Positions 14,926 to 41,226 of a DNA stretch of 62,853 nt are shown one piece after another. The notes under the pieces were generated by a model. The model was not told the DNA's origin. It saw nothing but the letters and a program-made list of their open reading frames with translations, and searched no databases. A program made the translations under genes and the position numbers. Source of the DNA: a virus. The stretch lies in the IMG/VR virus record IMGVR_UViG_3300035047_000236. The stretch is one strand, 5' to 3'. How positions within the stretch are numbered: position 1 is the first letter of the stretch; each line of letters opens with the position of its first letter.

Positions 14926-15927
14926 TTACATTAATGCAGCCAATAAACATCCGTTAGCTACACAAGTCATAGGATTATCTACTCTTCTGACTTCACCTAT
15001 TCTTAAAGGCATATTAACAGACTTTAAAGTGTTCTCCACTTTTTCTACAAAACCTTCAGCAAGAGTTAAACCACCAGAAAGGACTAAAGGTACATCCTCT
15101 CTAAATATAGGTAAATCTTTTCTCCTACGATTAAGTTCATAAGAAATATTTTCCAATGTGTATTTTATAACTGTTCCATAATAAACATTTATAGCATTCT
15201 GAATTTCGCCTGCAGGATTTAAAAGATTAACACCATATTCTTTTTCTTGCTGAACCAGACTTGGTGACATATCTAATGCTGTTCCAACGGATTGATCTAT
15301 ATAATCACCTGATTTTGTTAAACTGAACTCTATTAATGGGTCTCCTTGGTGAACAACACAAACATTTGCCATACCTGCTCCGTAAGAAATACAAACACCT
15401 GTTAACCCATCGTCTAAAAGTTCAGATAATGCTATAGCAAATGCTTCATTTAAAGGTGATGACTCATATCCAAGTGTTTTCAAATAAGAGCCTATTATCT
15501 CAGTATGGTATATAATATCAAAATCTGTATCAACTGGTTGTGCTGGAACAGAATATACAACTTTTGATCCTGGGGCTGATTCCCCTAATATCGTCTTTAT
15601 TAAAGTTTTAATTACAGGTAAAGACTTTTTATTCTTTGGTGATATAACACCTTTCTGTAAAGGTCTTTCTGCTTTATCGTGTCTTTCTATAGCTATTTCT
15701 AAAGCATCTTCACCTACTACTATAAACGTGTTGTCATCTATTATGTAATTAGCCCTTCTTTTGTCTAATGACATTTTAATACTGTTTTTATTTACTTCTG
15801 ACTTTGGAATTATTCTATAAAATGCATCTCTTTGCATTTTAAATTCAGAAGAGCCATTATCATCTAACGATGCTGCGACCAGCATATTGGTGCCTACGTC
15901 TAGGCCTTTCCTATTTACTTCTGTCAT
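14926..15927 (-). CDS. Actin-like ATPase (MreB/MamK/ParM superfamily)
   Basis: GLDVGT, GAGMAN, LSGGLT, ANGCL motifs. Confidence 0.85.
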   Translation of the reverse strand: MTEVNRKGLDVGTNMLVAASLDDNGSSEFKMQRDAFYRIIPKSEVNKNSIKMSLDKRRANYIIDDNTFIVVGEDALEIAIERHDKAERPLQKGVISPKNKKSLPVIKTLIKTILGESAPGSKVVYSVPAQPVDTDFDIIYHTEIIGSYLKTLGYESSPLNEAFAIALSELLDDGLTGVCISYGAGMANVCVVHQGDPLIEFSLTKSGDYIDQSVGTALDMSPSLVQQEKEYGVNLLNPAGEIQNAINVYYGTVIKYTLENISYELNRRRKDLPIFREDVPLVLSGGLTLAEGFVEKVENTLKSVNMPLRIGEVRRVDNPMTCVANGCLLAALM

Positions 15928-15965: not shown

Positions 15966-16586
15966 TTATTCAATCTCGTACTGTATTCCTTCTGTTAATG
16001 ACCCAGCAGATTCAGTTAATGATCCTTCGGAATCAGTTAATGATCCTTCGGAATCAGTTAATGTGGCGGGGGAGTAGGTTAATGAGCCAGCCGAGTCAGT
16101 TAATGAACTTTCTGCATAGGTAAAATTACCATAGGTGCCAGTTCCAGAACCATCGTTAGGAAGTTTGGCTATTAAGATGTCATAATCAGGTCCGTTGTCC
16201 CAATAACCTGTAACATAAATATTATCAGAACTGTCGGTGGTGATGGCTTGGCCATAATCATACCCATTACCTCCGGCCAAAGTTCTTTGCCACTGGATTG
16301 CTCCAGAACTGTTGTATTTGGCTATTAAGATGTCATTATAAGAGCCGTTGTCCCAATTACCTGTAACATAAATATTATCAGAACTGTCGGTGGTGATGGC
16401 TTGGCCATAATCATGCCCATTACCTCCATCCAAAGTTCTTATCCAATCACCTGCAGCACTTTCAATTTCAACAAAATCTTTATGACTCATAAAAAATTCA
16501 CTCAAGGTCGGTCTGACAAAGCCTTGAGCAGCTTTGCCTCGGATCTTTTTAAAATTCGCATCGTATAAATCTGATAAGTTTTTCAT
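15966..16586 (-). CDS. Conserved-leader protein 1: ~40-aa leader, two beta-propeller (SBBP-like) blades, 7-aa repeats
   Basis: LSDLYDANFKKIRGKAAQGFVRPTLSEFFMSHKDF, two copies of AITTDSSDNIYVTG, SLTDS(A/E)G repeats. Confidence 0.8.
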   Translation of the reverse strand: MKNLSDLYDANFKKIRGKAAQGFVRPTLSEFFMSHKDFVEIESAAGDWIRTLDGGNGHDYGQAITTDSSDNIYVTGNWDNGSYNDILIAKYNSSGAIQWQRTLAGGNGYDYGQAITTDSSDNIYVTGYWDNGPDYDILIAKLPNDGSGTGTYGNFTYAESSLTDSAGSLTYSPATLTDSEGSLTDSEGSLTESAGSLTEGIQYEIE

Positions 16587-18144: not shown

Positions 18145-18729
18145 TTATGATCTATTTTTCTGTACACCGTCAATCAAACCATACTCTATAGCTTCATCAG
18201 CTGTCATATAAAAATCTCTTTTCATATCTTCCTTAATCTTTTCTACATCTTGCCCAGTGAATTCCGAATATTGAATAGCCATTTTATCATATAATCTTTT
18301 ACTGTGATTAAAAGCTATTTGAATATCATTAAATTTTCCACCGTGCCCTGTAGATAATTCATGTATCATAATATCACAATTAGGTAGAGCAAACCTCTTA
18401 CCTTTTGCTCCAGCCGCAAGTATAAAAGAAGCCGCTGATGCTGCGCTACCATAAGCTAATGTACTTACATCTGGCTTTATATAATTCATAGTATCAAAAA
18501 TACTATACATAGATGAAATTCTACCACCAGGAGAATTAATATATAAATAAATATCTTTTTCATTATCTACTGATTCTAAAAACAATAACTGGGCTGTTAC
18601 TGTATCAGCCATCATTTCATCAAACTCGCCTCTAATAAAAATAACTCTATCCTTTAGCATTCTAGAATAAATATCATAAACTCTTTCCTGATTGTTCTCA
18701 CCTTTTTCGATTACGTATGGTACTGTCAT
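18145..18729 (-). CDS. clpP: Clp protease proteolytic subunit
   Basis: YDIYSRMLKDRVIF, YINSPGG, AASAAS (Ser), MIHE (His), RDFYM (Asp). Confidence 0.95.
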   Translation of the reverse strand: MTVPYVIEKGENNQERVYDIYSRMLKDRVIFIRGEFDEMMADTVTAQLLFLESVDNEKDIYLYINSPGGRISSMYSIFDTMNYIKPDVSTLAYGSAASAASFILAAGAKGKRFALPNCDIMIHELSTGHGGKFNDIQIAFNHSKRLYDKMAIQYSEFTGQDVEKIKEDMKRDFYMTADEAIEYGLIDGVQKNRS

Positions 18730-20992: not shown

Positions 20993-23569
20993 TCATCCTA
21001 TCGTTTTATCTTGTAAAAGATCCGCCACTTCTAATATAGTACTTCTATAAGAATTTTCAAGGTTTACATATGCAATTGATTCATGTGGTAAAACTCTAAG
21101 GAGTTTAAGAAGTCCAGACTCTGAAGGTTTAACCACATCATATGTTTGTGAAAGATCACCTAATAAAATCAATCTTCCAGATTCTGATGGTCTACTTAAT
21201 ATCATACTCATGTAACTAACATCTATAAGCTGTACTTCATCTACAATCAATGTGTCATTATCTAATAGAGATAATCCTTGGATTGAGTTCATAGGTAATG
21301 GCTCTAGTTTTTCTCTGAATAATATGTCTTTTACATAATCGTACCCTTCTCCATCTTTTTGCTGTCCTCTGGTATTAGAGTATAGATAATATAGAGCACT
21401 CATAAAACCAGCAAGCCAGTCCTGCATTTTATCTTCTTTAGTGTTATGGGTTACTATAAAGTCATCTGTTATATACAAACTTTTCTCACTATTTATTTTA
21501 ATACATTTAACAGCTTCTTTACCATTATATATTATATCTTTTATTTTAACATGCCTGTTTCTAGTTGGCATTTTCACTCTATTTGCTTTCCTAGATAAAT
21601 GAAAAACATTAATGTTATCTGATTTTGGTATACTAATTTCATAAGATATGTGTCTAGTAGTTATATCTCCCATATTTTCTGGTCTTTTAGTGGTTTTTCC
21701 AATTCTATTTCTAGTATAATAAGTAGCATTCATTCCTAAAGATCTTGATATCTCTATTATGTCGTCTGCTAGTTGTTTGCTTATAGTGGTTAATGATTGT
21801 TCACCAGTAGTATCTTTTATTGTACCATCTGTGTCCATTAGTCCTTGTAATATGGAAATTCTATCTTCTACTGAAGATCTTTTATAAATTTCCGGTATAA
21901 ACTTAGTATTAGATTTAGTATTTTCTAATCCTAATTCATATATACAGTTTTTAATATAATTTTGCCATCTCTTACTCTTACCAAATCTATAACTTTTACC
22001 GTCCACAGTAGATTCTTTTTTACATCTTCTCCGTAAAGTAGTTGTACTCACATTTATGATTTTACTGGCTTCTACAACTGAAGTAAATACTGCCTCGTTA
22101 TTGTTTTTTATATCAGTAATTATTACTGGTTTGGCAGGTTTATTTGAAGTGTAGTTTCCACTAATAGTGTAACAAATATTATGTCTAGTTAAATACATAG
22201 AATATTCTTTAATTTCACTCTCTACCCTATTTACGATCTCATGATCTGTAGAATAAAACGATATGCTGTTTGAAAAAGAACCATCTCCTAAAAGAACTCC
22301 CATAGTATAAGGTTTTATTGGTAGCTCATTATTACTGTCATATTGTACTATATTACACATCGGTAGTGTGTGATTATACTTATCTCCTGAATTTTCATTT
22401 ATTAGTGTGTTTTTTATTTCCAATGTAGATCTTAGTTTAAAATCATAATTATGTTTTAATTCATTATGTGTTTTAGTAGCCCACAAGTGGTCACCACAAG
22501 CTCTAGTTTTTCCACCATTGGTGGTTTCTATAGTATATACATCTTTAATACCTTTATCATATATCTCTAAAACCTCTGCTTTTTCTCCGTCCGAAGTTAT
22601 AACATAGTCGCCATTTTTTATCTTTCCCATAGTAGTCCATCCAGCAGGTGTTAGTATTTTAGCATCTAACGGTTGTGGTCCAGGAACAAAACCTATATTG
22701 TATTTAGAGTTCAAACCTATAGGTGCCCTAGAAACAAATATTTTTTTATCCTCATTTATTAGAGCTGCACTTAAAGATAACAAACTTTTTCCAGAACCCC
22801 ATTTTCCAGTAATTAAAACATGTTGAGATTCTTTTAAAGCATATATAGCACATGTTTGATAAATATCTCTAGCTTTAATAACTTTAGCTTTTTTATTTCT
22901 AATAACTCTATATTCAGGGTCATCATCTATTTTTTGAAAAATTCTTTTTATTGGATTATGTGCATATACTACATTGTTTTCATCATATGTTTCTATTATA
23001 ATGAAAAACCACGAATTCATTTTGAATTCTTTAGAAGCGGTTTTTGAAAATAATTCGAATACTTCTTCGTACTCACCGAATTCAAATAACCTATTGTACC
23101 CAAAGGTCCCTTCTTTATTGTTTTTAAATAAATCATCTTGTTTGATATAAACATAAGGATTAAAAATATTGTTTAAAACAACATCATAAAGTCTGGTATC
23201 TAGTTTTTGCGAGCTGGCAATTATGTCCATAGACATGTCTTTAGTAGCTATTATAGCATCATATCTTTTAGCACACTCTATTATTTTTAAATCATTGGTT
23301 GATCCATCTAAATCATTTAATTCTGTATCAAATATTATTTTGTCTGGATATTTATCTCTAAAATCTATTAATGCTCTTATAGCCTGTCTAGCACTAAAAG
23401 CTGTATCTTTTTTAAATTTATGTTTATCTAATTCTTTTAAAACTGCTATAGGTATTACTATTTGTTTATAATTATTTGTTAATTTGTATAATATTTTTGA
23501 ATCATCTAACAGTAGATTAGTATCTACAATAACTTTTTTATCAATAGCAATAACTGAGTTTTTTAGCAT
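20993..23569 (-). CDS. phoH: PIN-PhoH (PhoH2-like) protein with intein
   Basis: PIN motifs VDTN...LKELD...ND...TKD, Walker A GKWGSGKS, IGFVPG, IVDEVQ, LLGD..Q. Confidence 0.9.
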   Translation of the reverse strand: MLKNSVIAIDKKVIVDTNLLLDDSKILYKLTNNYKQIVIPIAVLKELDKHKFKKDTAFSARQAIRALIDFRDKYPDKIIFDTELNDLDGSTNDLKIIECAKRYDAIIATKDMSMDIIASSQKLDTRLYDVVLNNIFNPYVYIKQDDLFKNNKEGTFGYNRLFEFGEYEEVFELFSKTASKEFKMNSWFFIIIETYDENNVVYAHNPIKRIFQKIDDDPEYRVIRNKKAKVIKARDIYQTCAIYALKESQHVLITGKWGSGKSLLSLSAALINEDKKIFVSRAPIGLNSKYNIGFVPGPQPLDAKILTPAGWTTMGKIKNGDYVITSDGEKAEVLEIYDKGIKDVYTIETTNGGKTRACGDHLWATKTHNELKHNYDFKLRSTLEIKNTLINENSGDKYNHTLPMCNIVQYDSNNELPIKPYTMGVLLGDGSFSNSISFYSTDHEIVNRVESEIKEYSMYLTRHNICYTISGNYTSNKPAKPVIITDIKNNNEAVFTSVVEASKIINVSTTTLRRRCKKESTVDGKSYRFGKSKRWQNYIKNCIYELGLENTKSNTKFIPEIYKRSSVEDRISILQGLMDTDGTIKDTTGEQSLTTISKQLADDIIEISRSLGMNATYYTRNRIGKTTKRPENMGDITTRHISYEISIPKSDNINVFHLSRKANRVKMPTRNRHVKIKDIIYNGKEAVKCIKINSEKSLYITDDFIVTHNTKEDKMQDWLAGFMSALYYLYSNTRGQQKDGEGYDYVKDILFREKLEPLPMNSIQGLSLLDNDTLIVDEVQLIDVSYMSMILSRPSESGRLILLGDLSQTYDVVKPSESGLLKLLRVLPHESIAYVNLENSYRSTILEVADLLQDKTIG
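21443..22678 (-). mobile_element. Class 3 intein (412 aa) with LAGLIDADG endonuclease
   Basis: Begins PQPLDAKILTP (Pro1). WCT signature: GDHLW, VKCIKI, VTHN|T. Motifs MGVLLGDG and LQGLMDTDG. Confidence 0.88.
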
Positions 23570-27233: not shown

Positions 27234-27893
27234 TTAATAATATAATTCATTTTTTAAATCGAAATCTTCTATCCATAAAGATATATCTTTTGTTATTCTG
27301 AAATTTGATATCATTCCATGAAAATAACTATTATTTTGACCACCTATAACTAAATATCTATTTGTATTTAATAAAGCTTTATTAGAAAAAGTTTTATTAA
27401 TTACTTTTCCATTTCTTAACATGTATATATAATTACTACTTCTAACTATTGCCCAGTGTGTCCAAACCTCGTGCTCTAACTTGCAATTAAAATCGTTTTC
27501 TAACATTTCTGATAGGCTGGTATCATCAAACATACTAATCTTCTTAAAATCAGTGTTTTTTATGTTTATAGCACCATTATTAAATAATACTTGTTCTTCT
27601 TTTGAATCACTAAAGGTATATTCCCACCAATCAATAGTAAAATCTTCAGCCCCGAAATTTAATTTTCTTTTATGATCTTTTACTATTATTCTACTTTCAC
27701 TTCCATTTAAGTATATGTAAGAATTAGTTATAGCATTACTATTACTAATTATATCCTTATGATTATTTGTTATATCAACTATTTTACCATTATCATTGAT
27801 AAGAAATAAATCACCAAAAAAAGTATCCTCATCGAAAGAATGTCTGATATTTTTTCTCATAGATCTAATCTTGGCTGGAAGTTTTATTATCAT
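27234..27893 (-). CDS. LamG/concanavalin-like domain protein
   Basis: DFTIDWW...WTHWAIVR...FHGMISNFRITK. Confidence 0.75.
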   Translation of the reverse strand: MIIKLPAKIRSMRKNIRHSFDEDTFFGDLFLINDNGKIVDITNNHKDIISNSNAITNSYIYLNGSESRIIVKDHKRKLNFGAEDFTIDWWEYTFSDSKEEQVLFNNGAINIKNTDFKKISMFDDTSLSEMLENDFNCKLEHEVWTHWAIVRSSNYIYMLRNGKVINKTFSNKALLNTNRYLVIGGQNNSYFHGMISNFRITKDISLWIEDFDLKNELYY

Positions 27894-28120
27894 ATTAAAC
27901 CATACCTTTCCAATTCTATTTTTGTTGCTGGTCTACATCTAACAATAATACTTTTTTTACATTCTTTATTGCCTTCATTTATTAAACCACAATCAATATT
28001 ACATATTTCATCTGTAGAACAACCATCAACTGGGTGAGGTCTTCCGTGATAGCATCCTGATAAACAATGTCTCTCTAAACTTTTTTCTTTATCTGGTCTG
28101 TTACAAATGTAGTATATCAT
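27890..28120 (-). CDS. Cys-rich small protein
   Basis: GAGG RBS, multiple Cys/His. Confidence 0.55.
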   Translation of the reverse strand: MIYYICNRPDKEKSLERHCLSGCYHGRPHPVDGCSTDEICNIDCGLINEGNKECKKSIIVRCRPATKIELERYGLI

Positions 28121-28212
28121 GTTATACCTCGTATATGTTTATTCAGTCAATGATAACTTAATAACTTTTTAATATATGTCAAATAAAAAAACATTAAATA
28201 ATTTATTATTTC

Positions 28213-31200
28213 TTAAGAGTAAGGTGCTACTGTTTTATATGGGTGCCCGTCCGGAAGGTTTGTCTCAAGACCCCATTTCCAGGCCAGGTAGCCTTCTATT
28301 TTTTCCCGGTTATTTGTACTAATTACCCCTGCCACGATGATGAATTCTGCAAGTTCTCCTGAAAGACCATAGCTGTAGTTGGGTGCCCCTCCTACGTGGG
28401 CAGTGTTAGTTGGATCGCCCACACCGACACTCCCCGCAGATATCATCGTGTCGGCATAAATAGTGCCATCGCATCTTATAACAAGCCGGTCAGCACTTGC
28501 CGCATCAAGATCAAGCCCATACATCACGACGCCCCATGTGTTGCCTGTTAGCGAATTATTTGCATACCCGCTCACAGTTGCTGGAGATATTTGTCCGCTC
28601 ACATAAGCAAAAAGCGCCCTATCCCGCCCTAATCCGCCCCTGTCATCGAAAGAAAACACTGCTCCTTTTTGTGATACTGTTTGATCACAAGTGCTAAAAT
28701 AAGGCATATACGCATCGGGGTCTGTGCTTGTTCCAGCCTTCAAAACAGCAAAAATAGTGTATTCTGTAGTATTATTATGCAAATACGCCCAGTTAGATGC
28801 TGCTTGATCACATACTAATTTCTCTGATCCACCAAATGCTACCGTGTTTTTAAGATTTTGCGTCCCCTGGGTTGGTCGTGCGGCTAAAGCAGGTTGACTG
28901 AAAGAGTACGCATTCCCGCTTTTATCGTCCCACTGCTCTACGTTATTACTACCATCAAGCGTGATTGTGCCGCTATCAGCCGCATCCAGCCACAACGCTG
29001 TGGTTATTTCTGTCGGGGTCCAAAGAGACCCACTAATATATTCTATTGGAGGTTGAAAATCACTTAAATACATACTATCAATATAAAACGTATTATCTAA
29101 ATCATCATTAAGTATATTAAAAGCTATTTTTCTTATATAAAATAAACTTGTGTCAAATAAAGAGCTTAAATCTATACACTCTTTTTGCCACACGTTTAGA
29201 TCATTGTGGTGTATATTTTTTGATATTGGCGTATTTATTAATGTACTTGAGTTAATATCTTCTATTTCTCCTGCGGTTAAAAGGGTATTGGTTTGGGCAT
29301 GATAATCGGCTTTTATCCAATCAGCAGACAGGTCTGTTATTAATATTGAAAAAAGAGCAGCTTGACCTTGAAACCAACGGCTTGGAACTGTTGAAAAACC
29401 TATGCGCGAATCAGTAGGAGTATCTCCAGTGTATGTTTCCCCTGAACTACTATCAAGAGCCAAAACCCCATCAACATATAATTTCACTGACGTTCCATTT
29501 CTTGAACAAGCAACATAATGATAATTACCGTCTGTTATATCAACAGGAGCTGTTATGGCACCACCACTTGGGGGGTATTCGTCAATGTATAAAAATCCAG
29601 AACCATCTATAGCAAAATTATGATTAATATGAGATGATGAAATATTCCATTGAGCAAAAAAATGTTGTTGATCACCATTTTTAGTTGTTTTTATTAAAGC
29701 GACCTGAGTATACTGATAAGTCTGCTCTGGAATGAGCAAACCGGAAAAATTGATATAATCATTTACCCCATCAAAATCTATTGCCTTACCAATTTCACCA
29801 TTAACTAAATTGGCACTTGTCATACTACCATTTGGTGTACCATGGTTTGCATTCCCTGTTGAATCAATAATACAATTTGCACCACCTGAAGGATCTTGGG
29901 CCATCGTATATACAGCAGCAAAATCATTATTCCAAACATTCTGCGCGGCTGTGTCGCCGGACTCACCTATATAATCTGTATTATTTTCTTGATTGGTGTC
30001 ATAATACAGATAAAGGGTGGTGTCTGCTGTGCTGGAAATTATCCAATCTGCCCGGGATGCCCAAAGAGTGATTTTATCATTCACCGTATCCCATTGTTCA
30101 ATTTCACAATATAACTGAGAGTTATCGATGAGAGTTACTGCTATTTTTTTGTCATTACTTCCAACTTCTGTAATAATATCTTCGGCATCTGTTCCAGATA
30201 GTGTTATTGGTACTGGAAAATGGGTTAGATCAGCATCAATTTTTGTGTGGTCTATTGTAAATGGTATTCTATAAGCCCAATCACCTAACCAATCAGATGG
30301 ACCTTCAACCGACATAGAAAACTCAACATTTTCTCCAACCCTATTTGATTTTGTATCAAAACATAAACTATTATAATCTCTTAATGCTATATCTTGAGTA
30401 AATTCTTTTTCAAAACCATATGTTTTCGAGCCAGAAATAACTGCTTCTGCACGTAGGGAAAAATTTCCGTATGTTGGTGAAGAGTTGTCTGTGTATACTT
30501 CTATTACATCTGAATAAGCCTGTATTTCTTGTGTAGGAGCAGCGCTTTCATATGGGTGCCATGAAGGCAGAGTTGCCTCAAGCCCCCATTTCCAAGCAAG
30601 ATACCCTTCAATTTTTTGGCGGGTGTCAGTATCTACCAGTCCGCTAACGATAATAATTTCAGCAACCTTGCCTGTCATAGGTAACACATTGTTTCCAAAC
30701 GCACCAATTTGTAATGTGTGTGTTGGGTTGGCTGTTGATAGCGTGGCTGACCATTCGTTGTTACCAAGCAAATTACCGCCATTGACAGACGTCTTTCCTC
30801 TCGCTGCCGGAGTAGCATTGCCTGGGTCCGTCAACCAGCCAACAACATTGAACTGCCCTGCGGGGATCAGATTGTTAAATTCTGTTGCGATCGGGTTGTC
30901 TGTGCCACCAAAGTTCCATACAACACGGCCATATAATTGAGCACTGCCGTTCCCAACCTGAATCATAGAGGCGTCATTCGCCCCTGTGACCACGGGTCTG
31001 TCTTCATAACCAACTGCATAGCCAGCGTTTCCTGAGGTGCCGGCACTTGTGCCCATCAAAGGATATACCGCTTCCGGGTTTGCAATATCACCAAACTGCG
31101 CCACCGCGAATACTGAGCTTTTTGTAGCGTCATGCAAGAACTTCCAAACACTTGGGGTATCATCGCTGGTCAAACAGTTTGCAGCGAAATCAAGAACATT

Positions 31201-33690
31201 AAGGCCATTCTTTGTAGATACGCCCGTGGTCGGCTGCATGGATGTTGTTGCCTGTGAAAAATTCCTACTGTTACCGGACTTATCAGAAAATGCCGATACC
31301 GCACCACCGCTCTCCGTGATAGTGCTGCTATCTGCTGCATCCAGCCATAAAGCAGTAGAAATTTCCTCCGGCGTCCAAGGAATTTCCTTTTCTACCACAG
31401 GAGCCCAATTATTCCTTAATATACCATCTGTAGGATATTCAAAAGAATCTATCCAATAAATATCAGGCATACCAAAAGACATACTATCAATATATATTGT
31501 ATTGTCTGCATCATCATTTAATATCTTAAACTCTATTTTGTTGTATGTACCACTGTTTGTTGTTACATTTATTAATTCCTTTTGCCAAGTGTTTAAATAG
31601 CTGTGATTTATGGTTTTTGTTATGCTTGATAATACACTACCAGCCCCTGAGTAATCTTGGACCATCCCAGAAGTTAAAAGGGTATTGGTTTGGGTGTGGT
31701 AATCTGCTTTAATCCAAGCATCAGATGGGAGGGTATTAATAATACAAACATGCTGCATGGCTCCTTCAAATTCATAGTCTGTCACACCCCCACTATCTGG
31801 CCGATGTCTCGCACCCCATGCCATGCCATTACTAACACCAAGGGTGGGGGTTTGTTGGTTCTCATAAGCAATACTTTTGGAAATACCGTCGAACCAAACA
31901 ACAATTTCGTCATCTGCTTGATTAAAATATACTAAAAGTCGATGGAACTCCCCGTCTGTAAGCGCACTTCCTATGCTTGCCACACCCTCAAGAGTTTTAT
32001 CGGTACCATCTCTAAGCATAGGGGAAATTTCCCCCGCATTAAGTGTATTATGTCTTATCTGCACCCGTGGAGTACCGTCACGCCAGCCGTGATACGCCGC
32101 ACCAACAGCTGTCGAAGCATACGTGTAAATAAAGCTTAGTTCGTTTGGGTAAGACGTAAAATTGGTAACGATGCAATCGTCAGAACCATCAAACTTAATA
32201 GCCTTGCCAATCGCCCCGTCAATTAGATCTTCAGAAGTCATTGATCCTTGTGAAGTACCGTGATTCTCGTTTACCGTCGAATCAATAATACAACCAGCAC
32301 CCCCTGAAGGGTCCTGTGCCATCGTATATACAGCCGAAAAATCACTATTCCAAACATTTTGGGCTGCTATATCACCAGCATAACCAACGTAAGTTGTATT
32401 GTCGTCCTGTACCCCATCATAATACAGGTACAAAGTGGTATCTTCTGTGCTGGAAATTATCCAATCTGCCCTGGATGTCCAAAGGGTGATTTTATTATTT
32501 ACCACATCCCATTGTTCAATTTCACAATATAACTGAGATTGATCAGGTAGTCCAATGGCTATTTTTTTATTATCGGTCGGTAAATATAACTCTATTATTT
32601 GTTCATCTTCTACATCAGAGGCGACATGTTGATCAAACTGACCGTTAAATATCAATTCTGAATTGGAGATTACCGCATTATAGGTTGTGTTTGTTATTGT
32701 GTCTGAAGATATGGTTATTTTTACATTCTTTGAACCTCTTGTTAATTCACCACCATAATAATGATGATTATTGATTTTGATTTTATCAAAATCAATAGCA
32801 GAATCAAAGACACAAATTAACCTAATATTTGTCGTGGAACTGCTAAGGAAACCTTGATTCCAGTAGTCCCCAGTTTTTAACGTAGAGGTATTAAAGGCTT
32901 TATCTGGTGGACCCCCGGAGTAATAAAAAGATGCATAAGCAGTAAATCCGGAAGTTACAGTTATTTTTACACCACTCAAATAAAAATCTACTTGTCTAAT
33001 TCCTGTATAACCACTGTCTCCCCAGTTATCCTCAATATCAAATATAACTGATTTAGCTGTAACTGCTCCCCCACTTAGCTCTACCATAATAGCTTCAGCA
33101 TCGGTTCCAGAAATTGTTATTGGTACTGGAAAATGTGTTAGATCAGCATCAATCTTAGTATGATCTATTGTAAATGGTATTCTGTAAGCCCAATCATCTA
33201 ACCAATAACTTTCTTCCCCTTCATATAACAGAGAAAATTCTAAATTTTTCCCTATTCTTGAAGCTTTTGTATCAAACTTTAATACATTATGTCTAGTACA
33301 GTTTATTGGTTCGTCAAATGTTCTACTTACTGTGTGATTTATTGAGCCGGATATTAATGCGTCTATTCTCATTGAATAGTTCCCGTAAGTTGTTCCCGAT
33401 GTACTTGTATCTGAATGGATCGTTAATGGAACAGTACCACTAGATGTAACCCATTTACTTCTTAAATATTCATCAGTATCATACTCAAACGGGTCTATCC
33501 ATTCTATATTAGGTAATTCTTGAAATGTTTTAAATCTTCTATCAATTATTTGCCAACCATCATTTCTACCAATAACCCACCTTTTTAGTGTTTTATCATA
33601 AAAAATAACTCCCTCATAATCTGGAGACCATGTTGGGGTAGCCTCCATAGCAAACATCTTTTTTATATAACTAAGTACGTTTTGGTCCAT
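28213..33690 (-). CDS. Large modular virion/receptor-binding protein (two DUF2341-LamG units, two WLDAAD lectin-like modules)
   Basis: Duplicated WAYRIPFTIDHTKIDADLTHFPV and WTP..I.TALWLDAAD...KIEGYLAWKWGL blocks. Confidence 0.8.
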   Translation of the reverse strand: MDQNVLSYIKKMFAMEATPTWSPDYEGVIFYDKTLKRWVIGRNDGWQIIDRRFKTFQELPNIEWIDPFEYDTDEYLRSKWVTSSGTVPLTIHSDTSTSGTTYGNYSMRIDALISGSINHTVSRTFDEPINCTRHNVLKFDTKASRIGKNLEFSLLYEGEESYWLDDWAYRIPFTIDHTKIDADLTHFPVPITISGTDAEAIMVELSGGAVTAKSVIFDIEDNWGDSGYTGIRQVDFYLSGVKITVTSGFTAYASFYYSGGPPDKAFNTSTLKTGDYWNQGFLSSSTTNIRLICVFDSAIDFDKIKINNHHYYGGELTRGSKNVKITISSDTITNTTYNAVISNSELIFNGQFDQHVASDVEDEQIIELYLPTDNKKIAIGLPDQSQLYCEIEQWDVVNNKITLWTSRADWIISSTEDTTLYLYYDGVQDDNTTYVGYAGDIAAQNVWNSDFSAVYTMAQDPSGGAGCIIDSTVNENHGTSQGSMTSEDLIDGAIGKAIKFDGSDDCIVTNFTSYPNELSFIYTYASTAVGAAYHGWRDGTPRVQIRHNTLNAGEISPMLRDGTDKTLEGVASIGSALTDGEFHRLLVYFNQADDEIVVWFDGISKSIAYENQQTPTLGVSNGMAWGARHRPDSGGVTDYEFEGAMQHVCIINTLPSDAWIKADYHTQTNTLLTSGMVQDYSGAGSVLSSITKTINHSYLNTWQKELINVTTNSGTYNKIEFKILNDDADNTIYIDSMSFGMPDIYWIDSFEYPTDGILRNNWAPVVEKEIPWTPEEISTALWLDAADSSTITESGGAVSAFSDKSGNSRNFSQATTSMQPTTGVSTKNGLNVLDFAANCLTSDDTPSVWKFLHDATKSSVFAVAQFGDIANPEAVYPLMGTSAGTSGNAGYAVGYEDRPVVTGANDASMIQVGNGSAQLYGRVVWNFGGTDNPIATEFNNLIPAGQFNVVGWLTDPGNATPAARGKTSVNGGNLLGNNEWSATLSTANPTHTLQIGAFGNNVLPMTGKVAEIIIVSGLVDTDTRQKIEGYLAWKWGLEATLPSWHPYESAAPTQEIQAYSDVIEVYTDNSSPTYGNFSLRAEAVISGSKTYGFEKEFTQDIALRDYNSLCFDTKSNRVGENVEFSMSVEGPSDWLGDWAYRIPFTIDHTKIDADLTHFPVPITLSGTDAEDIITEVGSNDKKIAVTLIDNSQLYCEIEQWDTVNDKITLWASRADWIISSTADTTLYLYYDTNQENNTDYIGESGDTAAQNVWNNDFAAVYTMAQDPSGGANCIIDSTGNANHGTPNGSMTSANLVNGEIGKAIDFDGVNDYINFSGLLIPEQTYQYTQVALIKTTKNGDQQHFFAQWNISSSHINHNFAIDGSGFLYIDEYPPSGGAITAPVDITDGNYHYVACSRNGTSVKLYVDGVLALDSSSGETYTGDTPTDSRIGFSTVPSRWFQGQAALFSILITDLSADWIKADYHAQTNTLLTAGEIEDINSSTLINTPISKNIHHNDLNVWQKECIDLSSLFDTSLFYIRKIAFNILNDDLDNTFYIDSMYLSDFQPPIEYISGSLWTPTEITTALWLDAADSGTITLDGSNNVEQWDDKSGNAYSFSQPALAARPTQGTQNLKNTVAFGGSEKLVCDQAASNWAYLHNNTTEYTIFAVLKAGTSTDPDAYMPYFSTCDQTVSQKGAVFSFDDRGGLGRDRALFAYVSGQISPATVSGYANNSLTGNTWGVVMYGLDLDAASADRLVIRCDGTIYADTMISAGSVGVGDPTNTAHVGGAPNYSYGLSGELAEFIIVAGVISTNNREKIEGYLAWKWGLETNLPDGHPYKTVAPYS

Positions 33691-33697
33691 AATTTTC

Positions 33698-33865
33698 CTA
33701 TAAATTGAATAGATCTTTTATTTCTACCCAACCATCTTTATCACCAGTTATAAAAGTTTGGGTTGATTTTACGAAGAAAAATGTTCCTATGTATTCTTCA
33801 GACCATTCAGGTTTGTTTTCTATTGAGAAACTTCTTTTTATATAATCTTGTAATCCTTTTTCCAT
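33698..33865 (-). CDS. 55-aa stand-alone paralog of the N-terminal domain of the 1825-aa protein (not in track)
   Basis: MEKGLQDYIKRSFSIENKPEWSEEYIGTFFFVKSTQTFITGDKDGWVEIKDLFNL vs MDQNVLSYIKKMFAMEATPTWSPDYEGVIFYDKTLKRWVIGRNDGWQII. Confidence 0.7.
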   Translation of the reverse strand: MEKGLQDYIKRSFSIENKPEWSEEYIGTFFFVKSTQTFITGDKDGWVEIKDLFNL

Positions 33866-34065
33866 TATTTTCCGATGTGTTTATTTTTTGGTTTATGATT
33901 TTCTGCGGCGAGAAAATTTTCTATTGCTTTAATGAAGTAATCTTCTATAGACATATTTTCTTTTAATGCTTCTTCTTCTAGAAATTGGTATAAAACCGGG
34001 TCTATATCTAATGAAACATCTAAGGTTCCATCTTCATTTTCTTTTAAATCTAATATTTCTAACAT
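33865..34065 (-). CDS. Small protein, possible ribbon-helix-helix
   Basis: SLDIDPVLYQFLEEEALKENMSIEDYFIKAI. Confidence 0.55.
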   Translation of the reverse strand: MLEILDLKENEDGTLDVSLDIDPVLYQFLEEEALKENMSIEDYFIKAIENFLAAENHKPKNKHIGK

Positions 34066-34129
34066 AATAATATTCCTTTCTAATAATGACGTAAATAATT
34101 ATTTACATCTCTAGAAATATTAAGGTTAG

Positions 34130-36172
34130 TTAATAGGTTATTCCTGGGGTAATTTTTCCAAATATTAGATCGTTGTATTCACCATAAGGTAAATCGTGGC
34201 ATGTAATATAATGTGTTCCTGTATATGTAGTGGTTATGAAAAAACTACCACTTATAGATGTTGTTGTATTCATTAATTCCCCAGTATCGTATCTATAAAG
34301 TCTTATGTTTCTTTCTACATATTGGCTTATACCATCTATTACTGTACCCTCGAAGTAATAAGTAGGTATTTTATCAATGTATGTGGTGGGTAACGCACTT
34401 TTATATGGGTGTCCTGAAGGCAGAGTTGCCTCAAGTCCCCATCTCCAGGCAAGATAACCTTCAATAAGCTGACGGTCTGTTTCTGATGGGATACCCTCAA
34501 GTATCAAAATCTCATATATGTCACCTACTGCGTAATTATTGTATAATTCAAAGTGTGAAAACAGCCTAACGCTACCACCAATAGACAGTTGAGTATATGC
34601 ACCGGTTCCAATTTGCGTCCCGTTTCTTAAAAGAGTGGCAGACGCAGTTAATTGATAATTCAATATTTGGCCGCCAGTTGTGGCCAACGCCATAAAACTC
34701 CAGTCACCATCAAAAAAGCCGACCTTGTTTCTCGGGTTAGAATTATCTACTAACTGGGCTAAAGTTATTCGATTAGTGCCACTTGCGTCGAGAAAATATG
34801 CCAGGGTATTATCTAATGTAGAAACAGATGGATTGCAGGCAATGAATATTGAAAAATCATTCGTAGTAAGAGAAATATCCAAATCCATAAAATCTGAATT
34901 TAAATTAATAATGTCCAAACCATTTTTAGCCTCTACAATCAGTGCTGGGCGGTAGCTGGAATTTGTTTGACTGGCATTTCTTCCGTTACCACTTTTATCA
35001 TCCCATTGCTCCACATTACCGCTTCCATCTAATGTAATAGTGCTGCTATCATCAGCGTCCAACCACAATGATGATGTTATATACTCTGGAGTCCATTCCA
35101 CTTCTTCCACAGTTTCTGGTATGTCTATGGTTTCTGTTTCCCCTTTAGTACTTAATGTATCTGTGAGTGAGGCGTTTGTGGCTTTGATCCATGCGGCTGA
35201 TCGAGATGTGTTTGATATTCTTAGCTCAGCAACAAGCATTTTTGTATTAGCTGAAGCATATAATGGATCGCCAGAAATTCTAAAATCTCCTGGATCGGAT
35301 AATATGGCACCATTTAATGTTGCTGGCGAGCAAGACAACAAACCATCGGTAAATATTTTTACATCCACCCCATCATGTGTACCGGTCAACAAATGATAAG
35401 TATTGTCATAAATGTATGCGGTTGAAATCGCTTCCACGTAAGAAGATCCCCATATGCGAAATGATGGATATGACGTGGTTGAATGCCTGGATTGAAGCGT
35501 ATATGACGAATCGCGACCAAGCACTACTACCTTATCCCAACCGTCAGGGGTGGAGGGCAATTTTAACAGGGTTTCGACAGTGATATTTTCCGGATTTAAT
35601 GGCCCGTTGGCGTCACTACTTACATTGATACAGTCATCCACCCCATCAAAATCAATCGCCTTGCCATAATCCGCGTCAACCAGATCCCCACTGGTCATGC
35701 CGCCGGAAGGCGTGCCGTCATTACTGTTGCTGGTCGAATCAAGAATACACCCCGTCCCGCCAGATGGATCTTGATTCATGTGATACACAGCGGCGAAATT
35801 AGAATCCCACACGTTCTGTGCTACAGTATCACCAGCATAACCAACATAATCATCATTATCTAATTGTTTCTTATCATAACAAAAATATATAGTCGTATCT
35901 GTGACACTAGAAATAACCCAATCGCTTCTAGATACATGATATACATATGATACCCCACTCTCATCATAAGTTTGTTCTATTTCACAATATAAATGATTAT
36001 CATTCTCATCTTTAAATGCTATGCTCTTGTTTGCAGATCCAATCTCTGAATGAATTCCAGACGCTGTAGTTCCAGAAACAACAACTTTAAGAGGAAAATG
36101 TGTTAAATCTTCATCTATTTTGGTATGATCAATAGTTATTGGAATTCTATATTTATAGTAGTTTGATATCAT
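34130..36172 (-). CDS. DUF2341-LamG-WLDAD virion protein, paralogous to the 1825-aa protein
   Basis: YRIPITIDHTKIDEDLTHFP, LWLDADD...IEGYLAWRWGL. Confidence 0.8.
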   Translation of the reverse strand: MISNYYKYRIPITIDHTKIDEDLTHFPLKVVVSGTTASGIHSEIGSANKSIAFKDENDNHLYCEIEQTYDESGVSYVYHVSRSDWVISSVTDTTIYFCYDKKQLDNDDYVGYAGDTVAQNVWDSNFAAVYHMNQDPSGGTGCILDSTSNSNDGTPSGGMTSGDLVDADYGKAIDFDGVDDCINVSSDANGPLNPENITVETLLKLPSTPDGWDKVVVLGRDSSYTLQSRHSTTSYPSFRIWGSSYVEAISTAYIYDNTYHLLTGTHDGVDVKIFTDGLLSCSPATLNGAILSDPGDFRISGDPLYASANTKMLVAELRISNTSRSAAWIKATNASLTDTLSTKGETETIDIPETVEEVEWTPEYITSSLWLDADDSSTITLDGSGNVEQWDDKSGNGRNASQTNSSYRPALIVEAKNGLDIINLNSDFMDLDISLTTNDFSIFIACNPSVSTLDNTLAYFLDASGTNRITLAQLVDNSNPRNKVGFFDGDWSFMALATTGGQILNYQLTASATLLRNGTQIGTGAYTQLSIGGSVRLFSHFELYNNYAVGDIYEILILEGIPSETDRQLIEGYLAWRWGLEATLPSGHPYKSALPTTYIDKIPTYYFEGTVIDGISQYVERNIRLYRYDTGELMNTTTSISGSFFITTTYTGTHYITCHDLPYGEYNDLIFGKITPGITY

Positions 36173-36178
36173 TTTTTA

Positions 36179-36792
36179 TTAATTATCCCTTAAGTAATTA
36201 TAATCTTCTGGTCTTTCGTAAGTAAAACCCGGCCCGAAATGTATTAGGTTGCTGAAGACCCATGTAACTCAACACCAGCTTTGAGTTTTATACCATCATT
36301 ACCACCAACCCAGTCATACGTTAGAGCAAAAGCATTATTCACATAAACATCCACAGTTTTATTATCTATATCTAATCTATAACCTACTATATCATCGTTT
36401 CTTACTATATAGTTAGTGGTTTTATAATTAAGATAATTATAGCCCCAAACTTCTACAAGTACTGAATTATTTGTTGTATCTAATATTAGTAGTTGTATAG
36501 ATATCTTATCAGTTATATTCAAAGCATTATGTTCAATATAATACTTTCCTGTTGTAAGTGTGTTTACACTTGTTCTCCATATACCCTCTCCTTGGGCATC
36601 AACTGTTCTACCTGTTTCATCCAAAAATCCTTCAGATTCAGGATTTAATATAGGAGATGTTTCTGTCTCAATCTCAGTAAAATCCTTATTACTCATAAAA
36701 AATTCACTCAAGGTTGGTCTGATAAACCCTTCAGAAGCTTTTCCACGGTTTTTCTTAAAAGTAGCATCATATAAATTTGATAAATATTTCAT
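36179..36792 (-). CDS. Conserved-leader protein 2: leader plus SPRY-like domain, probable frameshift near 36246
   Basis: LSNLYDATFKKNRGKASEGFIRPTLSEFFMSNKDF, TGKYYIE...DIVGYRLDIDN. The -1 frame continues LIHFGPGFTYERPEDY to stop 36179. Confidence 0.7.
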
Positions 36793-36811
36793 TTTTTTTA
36801 AATTTTCCCCT

Positions 36812-37801
36812 TTATGATAATGTGTTTAATACAAATAACCCCGAATTCCCATCAGTTTCTGAATTGTTTCCAGCGTTATTTGTATAGTCCAAATCATTAT
36901 TATTAGGAACTTCCCCGCCATAAGCATTTAACCTTGTAGTTTCACCGTTACTGACTAGGGAACCATTTACAAAACCAGATCCTCCACCTCCTGAAGATCC
37001 TAATGTGTTGTTTGTAGAACCAGCACCGCCTCCATAATAACCAGAACCACCCCCACCACCAGAGTAGGTTTGGGTTATATTACTTCTAGCATTTCCCCCA
37101 TATAATTTTCCGCCAGGGTATGATATGGTGTTGTGGTATGAAAAAGTTCCAGCGGCGCCTCCAGCATATTGAGTTCCGCCCTGTCCAACTGGTTTATTAA
37201 CTAATGCTCCAGACCCTCCAGTAAGACCACCACCATTACCCCCGGTCCAGCCCTGGCCACTTCCACCGCCCGCACCGGCAATCAACACACTATTATTGTG
37301 ATCTACTGTATTTAAAAACAAACCAGTAAGTCCTCCACCAGATCCAACATATGATGTAGATAGATTAGTTTTGCCACATAAACCTCCTCCACCAAATCCA
37401 CCATAAACACCAGAAACATTACTATTACAAATTAGCCCAGGACCACCTACCCATATTTTATATATTGTATCCTTAAGTAAAAGAATTTCTCCATAAGTAT
37501 AACCACCTACACCACCATTTCTTCCTCCACCAGCACCCCAAAGTTTACAACTTACTGCAGTATCTTTGTCTACAGTAAGAATATATTCTCCTGGCTCCGT
37601 TAATTGTTGTCTTCCACTCCCAAATCTAATATTACTGCCATCAGGTTTAATTATATTTATATAACTAGCCGTTATTACGTAACTAAAATCTTTATGAGTC
37701 ATAAAATACTGACCCAAAGTTGGTCTAATAAAACCTTGAGCAGCTTTGCCCCGCAGTTTTTTAAAATTAGCATCATATAAATCTGATAATTTTTGTACCA
37801 T
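36812..37801 (-). CDS. Conserved-leader protein 3: leader plus glycine-rich domain
   Basis: LSDLYDANFKKLRGKAAQGFIRPTLGQYFMTHKDF, KLWGAGGG...IAGAGGG...GGGSGYYGGGAG. Confidence 0.8.
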   Translation of the reverse strand: MVQKLSDLYDANFKKLRGKAAQGFIRPTLGQYFMTHKDFSYVITASYINIIKPDGSNIRFGSGRQQLTEPGEYILTVDKDTAVSCKLWGAGGGRNGGVGGYTYGEILLLKDTIYKIWVGGPGLICNSNVSGVYGGFGGGGLCGKTNLSTSYVGSGGGLTGLFLNTVDHNNSVLIAGAGGGSGQGWTGGNGGGLTGGSGALVNKPVGQGGTQYAGGAAGTFSYHNTISYPGGKLYGGNARSNITQTYSGGGGGSGYYGGGAGSTNNTLGSSGGGGSGFVNGSLVSNGETTRLNAYGGEVPNNNDLDYTNNAGNNSETDGNSGLFVLNTLS

Positions 37802-37814
37802 TATTATTCTCCTT

Positions 37815-38336
37815 TTAATATATGCCTATTTCTACTCTATTTGATGATGTGTTATAATGAGTGATAACTTCGTATAGTAGTCCATGCATTTCATATGTTT
37901 TACTGTGCCAATAGTATGATCTAAATCCACAATAATGCTCACCTAAATATGCACCTTTTGATGATTTTGATTTTGATACTGACTGTGTGTTACTCCAAAC
38001 GGTAGGTGCTGTAGATTTGTGGTTACCGCAGACATCACCTCCCCAAGAACTTATACTATATCTCTGCCAATTATCAGCTTGTGTCCATCCTTCTGGAACT
38101 GATGATAATGGAACTCTTCCAATAGTTCCATTACCTGTATCAAAAACTTCCCCTCCTAAAGCCAACACTTCGTCTTCTGTATGGGTACTTCCAGGCCAAG
38201 TAAGATATTTGGGTATTTCAATAAAATCTTTATGTGTCATTAAGAATTCACATAATGTAGGCCTAATAAAATTCTGTTTGGCTTTACCTCTAATTTTCTT
38301 AAAAGTAGCATTATATAATTCTGACAAATATCTCAT
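37815..38336 (-). CDS. Conserved-leader protein 4: leader plus unknown Trp/Ser-rich domain
   Basis: LSELYNATFKKIRGKAKQNFIRPTLCEFLMTHKDF. Confidence 0.8.
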   Translation of the reverse strand: MRYLSELYNATFKKIRGKAKQNFIRPTLCEFLMTHKDFIEIPKYLTWPGSTHTEDEVLALGGEVFDTGNGTIGRVPLSSVPEGWTQADNWQRYSISSWGGDVCGNHKSTAPTVWSNTQSVSKSKSSKGAYLGEHYCGFRSYYWHSKTYEMHGLLYEVITHYNTSSNRVEIGIY

Positions 38337-38351
38337 AAGCTTCTCCTTTAT

Positions 38352-39215
38352 TTATTTTAAAAACCTTTTATTAAAAAACTCTTCAACACACTCAAGTTGT
38401 GGGTTCTGGGTGAACTTATATCTATCTAATATTTTATTCATTTCTGTGACTAATTTACCATAGGTTATACTGTAGTTGTATTTCTGCAATACGTGACCTA
38501 ATGTATAGGTCATAGCCCCTTGGTATCTATTACTCAACCAAGCATCCGCACTTGTCTGATTTTCTTGGCAGCCGGATATTAGTATAGCATCTCCTTGATC
38601 TGCTGTATTGATTAGAAAATTATGCTTCGTAGCCCTACAATCATTTTTTGGGTCTGGAAAATCGAAAGAAAGGTCGTTATTTATTATAATAGAGTGGTTC
38701 TTTAGGATATTTGATACAGGTGGAGAGATAAACCTATTCACATAGTCATTTTCAGTTTTTTCTCCAAACGCAGAAAAACCGTTGCGGAGGCCGGTTCCGC
38801 TATGGCAACAATCTAATATTACTAATGTTGTACAATCTTTGGGAACTCTTTTAAAATATGCCCCAATTTCATGATCTCTTAAAGGACTACTCCATGACAT
38901 ATTAATCGGTACTAAAATTTCATCTCTACCATCGACCTCTTCTGAGGCAGTCCAATCATCTACCATAACCTGGCTACCATGACCAGAATAATGAAAAACT
39001 ATATTATCTTCAGAACTAACTCCCTGAGTCAACCATTTCAAACCCATAACTATATTTTCTTTTGTCGCATCATAATCTTCTAATATTTTTATATTTTCTT
39101 GTTTAAATCCAAACTTAGATGTAAGTATTTTAAAAACCATCACACAATCGTTAACACAGCCTCTAAGAGGTGAATTACTATATTTATTTATTCCTACTAG
39201 AAGTGCTTTTTTCAT
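38352..39215 (-). CDS. Metacaspase (peptidase C14)
   Basis: KKALLVGINKY...LRGCVND, HYSGHG, LDCCHSG, QTSAD, GAMT, QNPQL. Confidence 0.93.
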   Translation of the reverse strand: MKKALLVGINKYSNSPLRGCVNDCVMVFKILTSKFGFKQENIKILEDYDATKENIVMGLKWLTQGVSSEDNIVFHYSGHGSQVMVDDWTASEEVDGRDEILVPINMSWSSPLRDHEIGAYFKRVPKDCTTLVILDCCHSGTGLRNGFSAFGEKTENDYVNRFISPPVSNILKNHSIIINNDLSFDFPDPKNDCRATKHNFLINTADQGDAILISGCQENQTSADAWLSNRYQGAMTYTLGHVLQKYNYSITYGKLVTEMNKILDRYKFTQNPQLECVEEFFNKRFLK

Positions 39216-39240
39216 TTTATTTTCTCCTTTTATTTATATT

Positions 39241-39738
39241 TTAAATAACATCACGAACTACACGGAAGCATGCGCCGCCATCTGTATAATAAAAGAAACC
39301 GTCAGATGGTCTCATCATCCACGATTCACCATCTATAATTGGTCCTCCAATTTCCCAATAATTAAGTTCTATAATATCCTTGTTTGCATACATAACACTT
39401 AATTCAGATTTTGTTGGTAATCTCCAATCGTCTTTTTCTAACCAATTTAAATTTTCTACATAATTAGATATTTGATTAAACTGTCTTGACAAAGTGTTAC
39501 CATAATAAGCCCCAGCACTATTATTTGCTCTAGTGTAATATACGGAGCCAATTTGTATTACATCATTAGTCCCAGAAGGACCATAAAGTTCATACCAAGA
39601 CTTGATAATAGGGATCTTTTGAAAATCCTTATTACTAATAAAAAATTCACTCAAGGTTGGTCTGATAAAACCTTCACTTGCTTTTCCACGGATTTTCTTA
39701 AAAGTTGCATTGTATAATTCTGATAGAATTTTTGTCAT
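39241..39738 (-). CDS. Conserved-leader protein 5: leader plus DUF1566/Lcl-like C-type-lectin-fold domain
   Basis: LSELYNATFKKIRGKASEGFIRPTLSEFFISNKDF, DDWRLPTKSEL...YW...FRVVR. Confidence 0.8.
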   Translation of the reverse strand: MTKILSELYNATFKKIRGKASEGFIRPTLSEFFISNKDFQKIPIIKSWYELYGPSGTNDVIQIGSVYYTRANNSAGAYYGNTLSRQFNQISNYVENLNWLEKDDWRLPTKSELSVMYANKDIIELNYWEIGGPIIDGESWMMRPSDGFFYYTDGGACFRVVRDVI

Positions 39739-40580: not shown

Positions 40581-41226
40581 TCAGATACTTATTTTTCTTC
40601 TTCTTGTTATTAACAATAATCCTAAACCAGATCCAAAAAGCAATATAGTAGTAGGTTCTGGAACTGGGTTTACCTTATCAAGTCTAACTAATAAATTTTG
40701 TGCTTCTACACCATCTTTGTAAGATGTTATAGCATAAATATAATCTAAACTTGAAAACATTATACTGTCATTATCTCTTTCAGATAAGTAATATAGATAT
40801 TTATCTTCAATTATTCCTTTTGTTCTATTTTCAAACAGATCTCCATAAACTGCATCCCATATGGCAATTTGCAGCCCAGCAGAATTTTTTTTTGTGGGCA
40901 GAAGCATCATCTCCCCAACTATCCATTAACCATGCTGCATATAAGTAATTTCCACTATTAACATCTATAATATTTAAATCAACATCGTAAGTTTTTTCAA
41001 GCATATCATTATGTATATCAACACAATAACCAAATGTTGAAAAATACTTTGAATCATCATAATTTAAGGTTATACCGAATTCTGTAGCATACCATGTTTT
41101 ATTTACATTATCATATTTATATTTTATATCAGATAAACCGTTGTATTTTACTTCCATTTTAGCAGCTAAACAAACACTACAAAATATAAATGAGAGTAAA
41201 AGTGTTAATAAAAATAATTTTTTCAT
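40581..41226 (-). pseudogene. Signal-peptide, PEP-CTERM surface protein split by a frameshift at an A9 tract (40885-40893)
   Basis: MKKLFLLTLLL signal and GYCVD...AAWLM. Other frame gives AGLQIAIW...VPEPTTILLFGSGLGLLLITRRRK. A8 would fuse them. Confidence 0.85.

Follow-up and report, generated by a model that had tools for sequence, protein, structure and literature searches.

A portable 45-residue module on unrelated binding proteins of uncultured large phages and its candidate role as a docking peptide

In this study, we analyzed a 62,853-nucleotide stretch of the viral record IMGVR_UViG_3300035047_000236 (hereafter the window, meaning that whole stretch), in which five predicted proteins open with the same segment of about 45 residues, here called the module, and then run into payload domains that have nothing in common. 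By sequence comparison, the module is a new, unannotated family that is so far confined to uncultured phages, and the five window proteins belong to a family of accessory binding proteins that a clade of large, uncultured siphophages encodes. Display or attachment, a role first raised in an annotation made from the DNA letters alone (the first-pass annotation), is still the most plausible reading of the module, with hints of a virion location coming from the PHROGs matched by domains beside the module and from fusions to fiber-like proteins. More specifically, we tentatively favor, with a confidence that stays a little short of even, a docking or junction peptide by which exchangeable binding modules are attached to a shared partner on the virion, and which doubles as the breakpoint for payload swaps.

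One module on many unrelated payloads

The five module-first proteins of the window are the following:

15966..16586, minus strand: module-first protein 1, 206 aa; module encoded at 16452-16586; SBBP beta-propeller repeats
36244..36792, minus strand: module-first protein 2, 182 aa; module encoded at 36658-36792; SPRY/galectin-like jelly-roll payload
36812..37801, minus strand: module-first protein 3, 329 aa; module encoded at 37664-37801; ALK_LTK-type glycine-rich payload, also matching phrog_1589
37815..38336, minus strand: module-first protein 4, 173 aa; module encoded at 38202-38336; payload matching no known family
39241..39738, minus strand: module-first protein 5, 165 aa; module encoded at 39601-39738; weak Lcl_C/DUF1566-like payload match

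Their first ~45 residues align without gaps and with 20 invariant columns, the paralogous modules being 64-73% identical to one another, and past about residue 45 the similarity falls to background and the payloads are unrelated. A hidden Markov model (HMM) of the shared segment, run against all six frames of the window, recovered exactly these five open reading frames (ORFs; E values of 3e-32 to 6e-30, with the next match at 0.11), so that the five ORFs and the leader pattern described in the first-pass annotation were borne out down to the coordinates. This gene count covers the 63-kb window, which comes from a parent contig of 187 kb. Each of the five genes is preceded by an AGGAG-type ribosome-binding site, and the gene of protein 1 occupies a separate slot, between the genes of a coiled-coil protein and an actin-like protein. 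Pfam assigns the payload of protein 1 to SBBP repeats (1.9e-11) and that of protein 3 to the ALK_LTK glycine-rich domain (5e-19) but holds no family for the payloads of proteins 2 and 4; an AlphaFold2 model gives protein 2 a SPRY/galectin-type jelly roll with a predicted local distance difference test score (pLDDT) of 80-96. The earlier calls of a propeller, a SPRY-like domain, a glycine-rich domain, and an unknown domain thus hold, and the call of a DUF1566 lectin fold in protein 5 reduces to a sub-threshold Lcl_C/DUF1566 match (2e-4, 22 bits against a cut-off of 34.9). The module had also been described as basic, yet basic residues prevail in the first half and acidic ones in the second, for a net charge near +1 as counted from the sequence. 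It was correctly said not to be a Sec signal: it contains no hydrophobic run, and with copies also found internally and C-terminally it does not qualify as a Sec, Tat, or lipoprotein signal peptide.

Beyond the window, a profile of the five leaders retrieved 71 proteins of 82-2000 residues from a collection of 5.8 billion proteins, and a second scan, with the 182-residue protein against 1.84 billion representatives, added ~30 further relatives. The profile search and payload tally proposed in the first-pass annotation therefore yield 101 relatives and at least 12 kinds of payload. The module is N-terminal in 64 of these relatives, internal in 33, and C-terminal in 4; the label "N-terminal leader" therefore fails for about one-third of the family, where the module stands between two domains or at the end of the chain. 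Internal copies mostly lie at residues 160-400, after a conserved (Y)(I/V)RPDN, and further C-terminal copies occur in IMG/VR and JGI metagenome loci; the stop codons behind C-terminal copies are genuine, and the next genes are unrelated. Each protein examined carries a single copy. The consensus reads xLSxLYxxxxKxxLRGKAxEGFIRPTIxQFFTSxDFEEI; in an alignment of 67 diverse copies, no change is seen at R16, R25, or T27 and hardly any at Y8, G17, A19, G22, and P26. The adjacent domains, of at least 12 kinds, are without exception of non-enzymatic binding type, with no enzyme domain among them: Pfam tallies are 20 for Laminin_G_3, 17 for F5_F8_type_C, 12 for SPRY, 6 for Gly_rich_2, 5 for Lcl_C, and 4 for FG-GAP_2, and Kelch, SBBP, and fn3 also occur.

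The module itself matches no described anchor domain: residues 1-45 have no covering match in Pfam, PHROGs, or NCBIfam, and among PDB sequences the best match to the module profile has an E value of 1. An ESM Atlas search with the module returned nothing usable, a tblastn search of 50,697 GenBank phage records with the module had zero matches at E ≤ 1, and a pattern scan of GTDB, at one genome per species, gave no confirmed relative. The proposal of an undescribed portable module on unrelated binding domains is thereby upheld. Two resemblances were considered and set aside, namely, a split-intein C-fragment (internal copies measure only ~45 residues, and there is no intein domain) and a beta-clamp-binding motif (QxLSxLY), judged coincidental given the payload types. 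We also observed divergent N-termini at 2826-3047 and 2073-2768 of relative L059 and at 13579-14277 of L060 (MRKLSEMYRVKWKLRSV...LPRPSLRDFY and MPFLTDIYGVSN...), which resemble a degenerate module, and the family may therefore be wider than the HMM detects.

Structure prediction separates the module from its neighbors. In AlphaFold2 models built on the family alignment, the N-terminal module of the 182-residue protein is mostly coil and of low confidence (pLDDT of 54-68), and so is the module between the LamG and SPRY domains of the fused relative P0045 (44-52). The LamG domain and the jelly roll of the 182-residue protein are modeled with confidence, these flanking domains reaching a pLDDT of 80-96; the SPRY payload of P0045 is patchy (40-82). 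A low-confidence module is what the models would be expected to give for a segment that becomes ordered on binding or for an exposed linker. A homotrimer complex prediction for three copies of the 182-residue protein, made with its own alignment and without controls, gave no answer (score of 0.00) and counts neither for nor against self-association.

Low confidence in a monomer model, as obtained for the module, is also often seen for segments of obligate oligomers, and the module could in principle be a self-association element whose copies pair or trimerize, giving multivalent lectins and joining proteins that end in the module to proteins that start with it. Such a role would suit a module that occurs once per chain, at either end or in mid-chain, and that sits at the distal end of giant fiber-like proteins having a conserved N-terminus of their own. 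Against this, the module shows neither heptad nor collagen-like periodicity, its sequence being rich in Gly, Pro, and Arg, the five window paralogues would cross-assemble indiscriminately within one phage, and nothing we found speaks positively for self-association, which we therefore regard as unlikely.

Selection on the peptide and exchange of payloads

Protein pairs with modules 80-93% identical carry unrelated payloads, and the relative P0006 shares its first 39 residues with the leader of window protein 3 before continuing into a different payload. These comparisons place the payload swap at the module boundary and bear out the earlier suggestion that payloads are exchanged at the shared segment; because the module is the only constant segment, it would itself be the exchange site. 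Module genes also change slot in otherwise syntenic relatives, where they follow the portal gene in L007, precede ClpP in L013, and, in the window, stand between the coiled-coil and actin-like genes. In L007 (5961-6319) and L011 (6342-6661), the slot between the portal gene and the following head-module gene is taken by an orthologue of module-first protein 1, with an SBBP payload, which is broken up into a pair of overlapping ORFs; in the window, a homing endonuclease sits in this portal-adjacent slot. Module genes and endonucleases thus seem to alternate in the same intergenic slots.

Such mobility, in a genome full of homing endonucleases and with near-identical modules on unrelated payloads, could also be explained if the module were a mere recombination linker for swapping payload cassettes, without a function as a peptide. 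The pattern of substitution argues against this. Among the five window copies, the proportion of synonymous differences (pS) is 0.26-0.86, at its upper end near saturation, and the proportion of nonsynonymous differences (pN) is 0.10-0.20, for a pN/pS of 0.17-0.45; the DNA is ~73% identical and shares short identical runs only, and the peptide is kept across relatives whose modules are just 40-60% identical. With pS near saturation and pN low, it is the peptide that selection preserves, and a bare recombination handle does not suffice as an explanation; the substitution pattern is that of a module under purifying selection. Of the recombination handle suggested by the first-pass annotation, the change of payload at the module thus survives, and sequence identity at the level of DNA does not; a module that is nothing but a linker strikes us as exceedingly improbable.

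Proposed docking on the virion and comparison with known systems

If the module is a docking peptide, as we favor, it would become ordered on binding a conserved virion partner, most likely on or near the fiber apparatus, and any binding domain bearing it would be mounted at that partner. The carrier would come either as a separate small gene, as in the window, or, as in relatives, fused with another module or with the distal end of a tail-fiber-like protein. Fiber-like and LamG proteins of the window lie beside the module cluster:

27234..27893, minus strand: stand-alone LamG protein P0102, 219 aa; homologous to the LamG domain N-terminal of the module in relatives built as LamG-module-payload
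28213..36172, minus strand: two giant DUF2341/LamG fiber-like proteins of 1825 and 680 aa, with two small ORFs between them; neither has the module

The LamG domain that stands upstream of the module in fused relatives corresponds to the separate 219-residue protein of the window, and this split-versus-fused relationship is evidence for docking. The relative L006 offers a further link to fibers: one giant protein is a 1042-residue LamG protein that ends in the module, and its neighbor, of 1392 residues, matches a full tail-fiber PHROG (1.5e-69) at residues 841-1157, stopping just short of the module at 1178-1226; the payload beyond the module is 42% identical to P0027, a stand-alone module-first protein. 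The N-terminus of the two giants is itself conserved (79% identity over 24 residues). Other domains beside the module match PHROGs labeled baseplate wedge, tail protein, and virion structural protein. The absence of a signal peptide, taken together with domain types that are usually extracellular, suggests cytoplasmic assembly onto particles as the ordinary way in which these proteins would meet their ligands. As a separate observation, a gene for a PEP-CTERM protein lies just upstream of the module cluster in the window (40581-41226, minus strand), and another lies between the two giant module-bearing LamG proteins of L006 (13155-13826); this recurrent neighbor hints at an exosortase-bearing host.

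Several points weigh against docking. (i) Module genes also occupy non-structural slots, beside the ClpP and actin-like genes in the window and after the uracil-DNA glycosylase gene in L004 and L055. (ii) The PHROG function labels of the flanking domains, including those listed above, are inherited annotations. (iii) Since the L006 giants have their own conserved N-terminus, the module is not the sole attachment element there. (iv) Known docking peptides are N-terminal, whereas the module is also found C-terminally or between domains.

Two classical phage systems invite comparison. In the T-even phages, conserved motifs in the distal tail-fiber genes mediate adhesin swapping, largely through DNA homology within one fiber gene. 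As in those genes, constant segments flank variable binding segments and mark the points at which specificity is exchanged; unlike them, the module keeps its peptide sequence although synonymous sites have diverged, and it recurs in many separate genes. The capsid-targeting sequence of T4 (on IPI, IPII, IPIII, and Alt) is a strictly N-terminal tag of ~10-20 residues that the prohead protease removes from payloads that are injected. The module resembles it as a short constant tag on diverse payloads in plastic loci with a phage protease nearby, and differs in being also internal or C-terminal and in having payloads that resemble surface binding modules. A capsid-targeting sequence of the T4 type was rejected on its strictly N-terminal position, given the 33 internal and 4 C-terminal copies among the 101 relatives.

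The closest experimentally shown analogue in design would be a peptide of the second receptor-binding protein (RBP2) of Klebsiella phage KP32. This protein, gp38, carries a conserved N-terminal peptide of 29 residues that docks it onto the first receptor-binding protein (RBP1); the peptide is dispensable for folding of the payload, is needed for incorporation into the virion, and is able to bear foreign payloads (PMC13352976). In KP32, K11, and KP34, such a peptide is confined to the N-terminus; it binds a T4gp10-like branching domain of RBP1, and its payloads are trimeric depolymerases (PMC13352976). The five window paralogues likewise present a short conserved N-terminal peptide on unrelated payloads within one phage. 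The module is longer, occurs also internally and C-terminally, and bears small lectin-like or propeller payloads.

A constant element of at most ~40 residues, at either end of a chain, that docks Kelch, SPRY, or propeller domains onto one machine is also the working principle of the F-box, the SOCS box, and the SspB tail. The likeness is one of working only, there being no kinship of sequence or fold, and those elements act inside the cell, whereas most payload types of the module are extracellular. The module could nevertheless be imagined as an adaptor box of this sort, docking substrate-binding domains onto the metacaspase or onto ClpP and its ATPase in order to destroy host proteins intracellularly. 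The proteins have no signal peptide and include SPRY, Kelch, and propeller recognition domains with the short box at either end; the phage encodes a full ClpP (1e-69) and a metacaspase, and relatives encode Clp-type AAA+ ATPases. Yet F5/8 type C, Lcl_C, FG-GAP, SBBP, fn3, and glycine-rich fiber domains, which make up most of the payload types, are typically extracellular, and the fusion to tail-fiber-like modules points outward, so that we hold an intracellular adaptor to be very unlikely.

The neighboring metacaspase and the genome setting

Two further genes belong to the surroundings of the module cluster:

38352..39215, minus strand: metacaspase, Peptidase_C14, 287 aa, with HYSGHG and DCCHSG; a conserved backbone gene
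27893..28138, minus strand: small Cys-rich backbone protein, in relatives directly after the metacaspase or one gene later

That a metacaspase with intact His and Cys sits inside the cluster, as first pointed out, is confirmed by its match to PF00656 (1.3e-34, 120 bits against a cut-off of 21.4) and by both catalytic motifs, which align to Arabidopsis metacaspase-4 and yeast Yca1. Among PDB sequences, it matches AtMC4 (1.2e-32) and metacaspase-1 entries including 4f6o (2e-28), and H79, C137, and D135 are invariant among 29 homologues. In characterized metacaspases, the Asp of DxCHSG goes with specificity for Arg or Lys, and the window enzyme is accordingly predicted to cleave after these residues. 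A literature search on phage metacaspases found nothing on the module system. In all, metacaspase homologues were confirmed on 147 IMG/VR stretches, many of them phage contigs, and at 28-33% identity they also occur on contigs of giant-virus metagenome-assembled genomes (L097, L114, L123, L126, L128, L129, L131, L132, L135, L136, L138, and L140).

Homologues 45-88% identical are common on large phage contigs, in the conserved order C14, sometimes a nuclease, a Cys-rich protein of 72-80 residues, a LamG protein of ~250 residues, a ~110-residue protein, DUF6899, and PhoH. The Cys-rich gene always precedes the backbone LamG gene downstream of the metacaspase, and the window retains both (27893-28138 and 27234-27893), its Cys-rich protein being ~42% identical to the 72-80-residue proteins of L001, L056, and L057. 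Since this pair is kept, the three module genes and the two giant DUF2341/LamG genes form a variable block between C14 and the pair.

This arrangement raises the question of whether the module is a recognition or cleavage site of the phage metacaspase, cut for instance after R16 or K18 of LRGKA, which would mature, release, or separate the binding domains and would make proteins with internal copies polyproteins. The enzyme is a true metacaspase in which the Asp of DxCHSG is retained, near-invariant Arg residues occur in the module, whose model is of low confidence, and module genes, which take up the slot next to C14 in some relatives as well, flank C14 on both sides in the window and in L060, where two of five module genes do so directly. 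One module gene lies directly upstream of C14 in L059, within ~0.6-3 kb of it in L001 and L045, and ~5 kb away in L048. Moreover, C14 homologues and module proteins share identical longest-contig sizes nine times, including 2.6 and 7.6 kb, and shared contigs were confirmed on DNA for L001, L045, L048, L059, and L060. Seen from the metacaspase, however, the association dissolves: only 1 of 80 C14-centered IMG/VR loci has a module gene within 10 kb, none of three large metagenome contigs chosen through C14 alone has one within 8 kb, and a 273-kb record rated 97% complete (G009) encodes a 52%-identical C14 and no module anywhere. With at least five dispersed module genes, moreover, we estimate that one would fall within 10 kb of any given gene in about one-third of cases. 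Forty conserved residues also far exceed what a cleavage site needs, K18 is substituted in several members, and the other conserved Arg precedes Pro. An obligate C14-module association was therefore rejected, and the link between the two that had been proposed fails as a general rule, although flanking does recur in L059, L060, L001, and L045. We consider a metacaspase site improbable, and the metacaspase is probably a backbone gene of a wider clade that lies beside a hot-spot for module genes, not an obligate processing enzyme. In this sub-clade it may still process the module, although the data do not demand such a role. A bolder variant, in which C14 would recognize and cut LRGKA...GFIRPT and join the binding domain covalently to an acceptor on the virion or cell surface, as a phage "sortase" for adhesins, can be modeled on clan-CD transpeptidases (legumain-type ligases and the PorU sortase of type IX secretion); by this analogy it is conceivable, and we give it very little credence.

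The module genes lie in an AT-rich minus-strand arm (window 1-45 kb) of an uncultured large phage, together with terminase, portal, many HNH and GIY-YIG endonucleases, a full ClpP, PhoH, and an actin-like gene. There is no cultured relative, the closest portal match in a GenBank phage being 24% identical. Four of these genes merit mention in their own right. The actin-fold protein (14926-15927, minus strand) matches Pfam Volactin over its full length (1.6e-64), has a counterpart of 74% identity in L013, and in relatives is encoded downstream of a full-length ClpP and a protein of ~190-220 residues; a literature search on phage volactin-like actins found nothing, and a phage-encoded actin of the haloarchaeal volactin type appears to be undescribed. 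The ClpP homologue (18145-18729, minus strand; PF00574, 1.1e-69) is full and lies amid non-structural genes, and since L004, L006, and L055 encode Clp-type AAA+ ATPases, the phage may bring its own Clp protease machine. The terminase (7232-10393, minus strand), at 1053 residues, is much longer than those of relatives, and PhoH (20993-23569, minus strand) has 858 residues against ~445 in L001, L056, and L057; the PHROG matches of both are split into separate stretches, an arrangement suggestive of inteins or of inserted endonuclease domains.

Phages swap receptor-binding modules behind conserved attachment segments, and by analogy the module is a variant of this known design principle, a swappable payload behind a constant attachment segment. 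The attachment segments known to us are either long anchor domains at the N-terminus or, on enzymatic tailspikes, short peptides restricted to the N-terminus; new here is a single 45-residue peptide that recurs across a clade of uncultured large phages in many metagenomes, on at least 12 kinds of small non-enzymatic domains, and at either end of the chain or between domains. Its function as a docking peptide is that of a candidate. Defining the family would by itself annotate a piece of viral dark matter. If the docking plug is real, it would constitute a natural plug-and-display system, would give a one-line sequence rule for the host-recognition and adhesion repertoire of phages that have no cultured member, and would offer a candidate tag for mounting foreign binding domains on particles.

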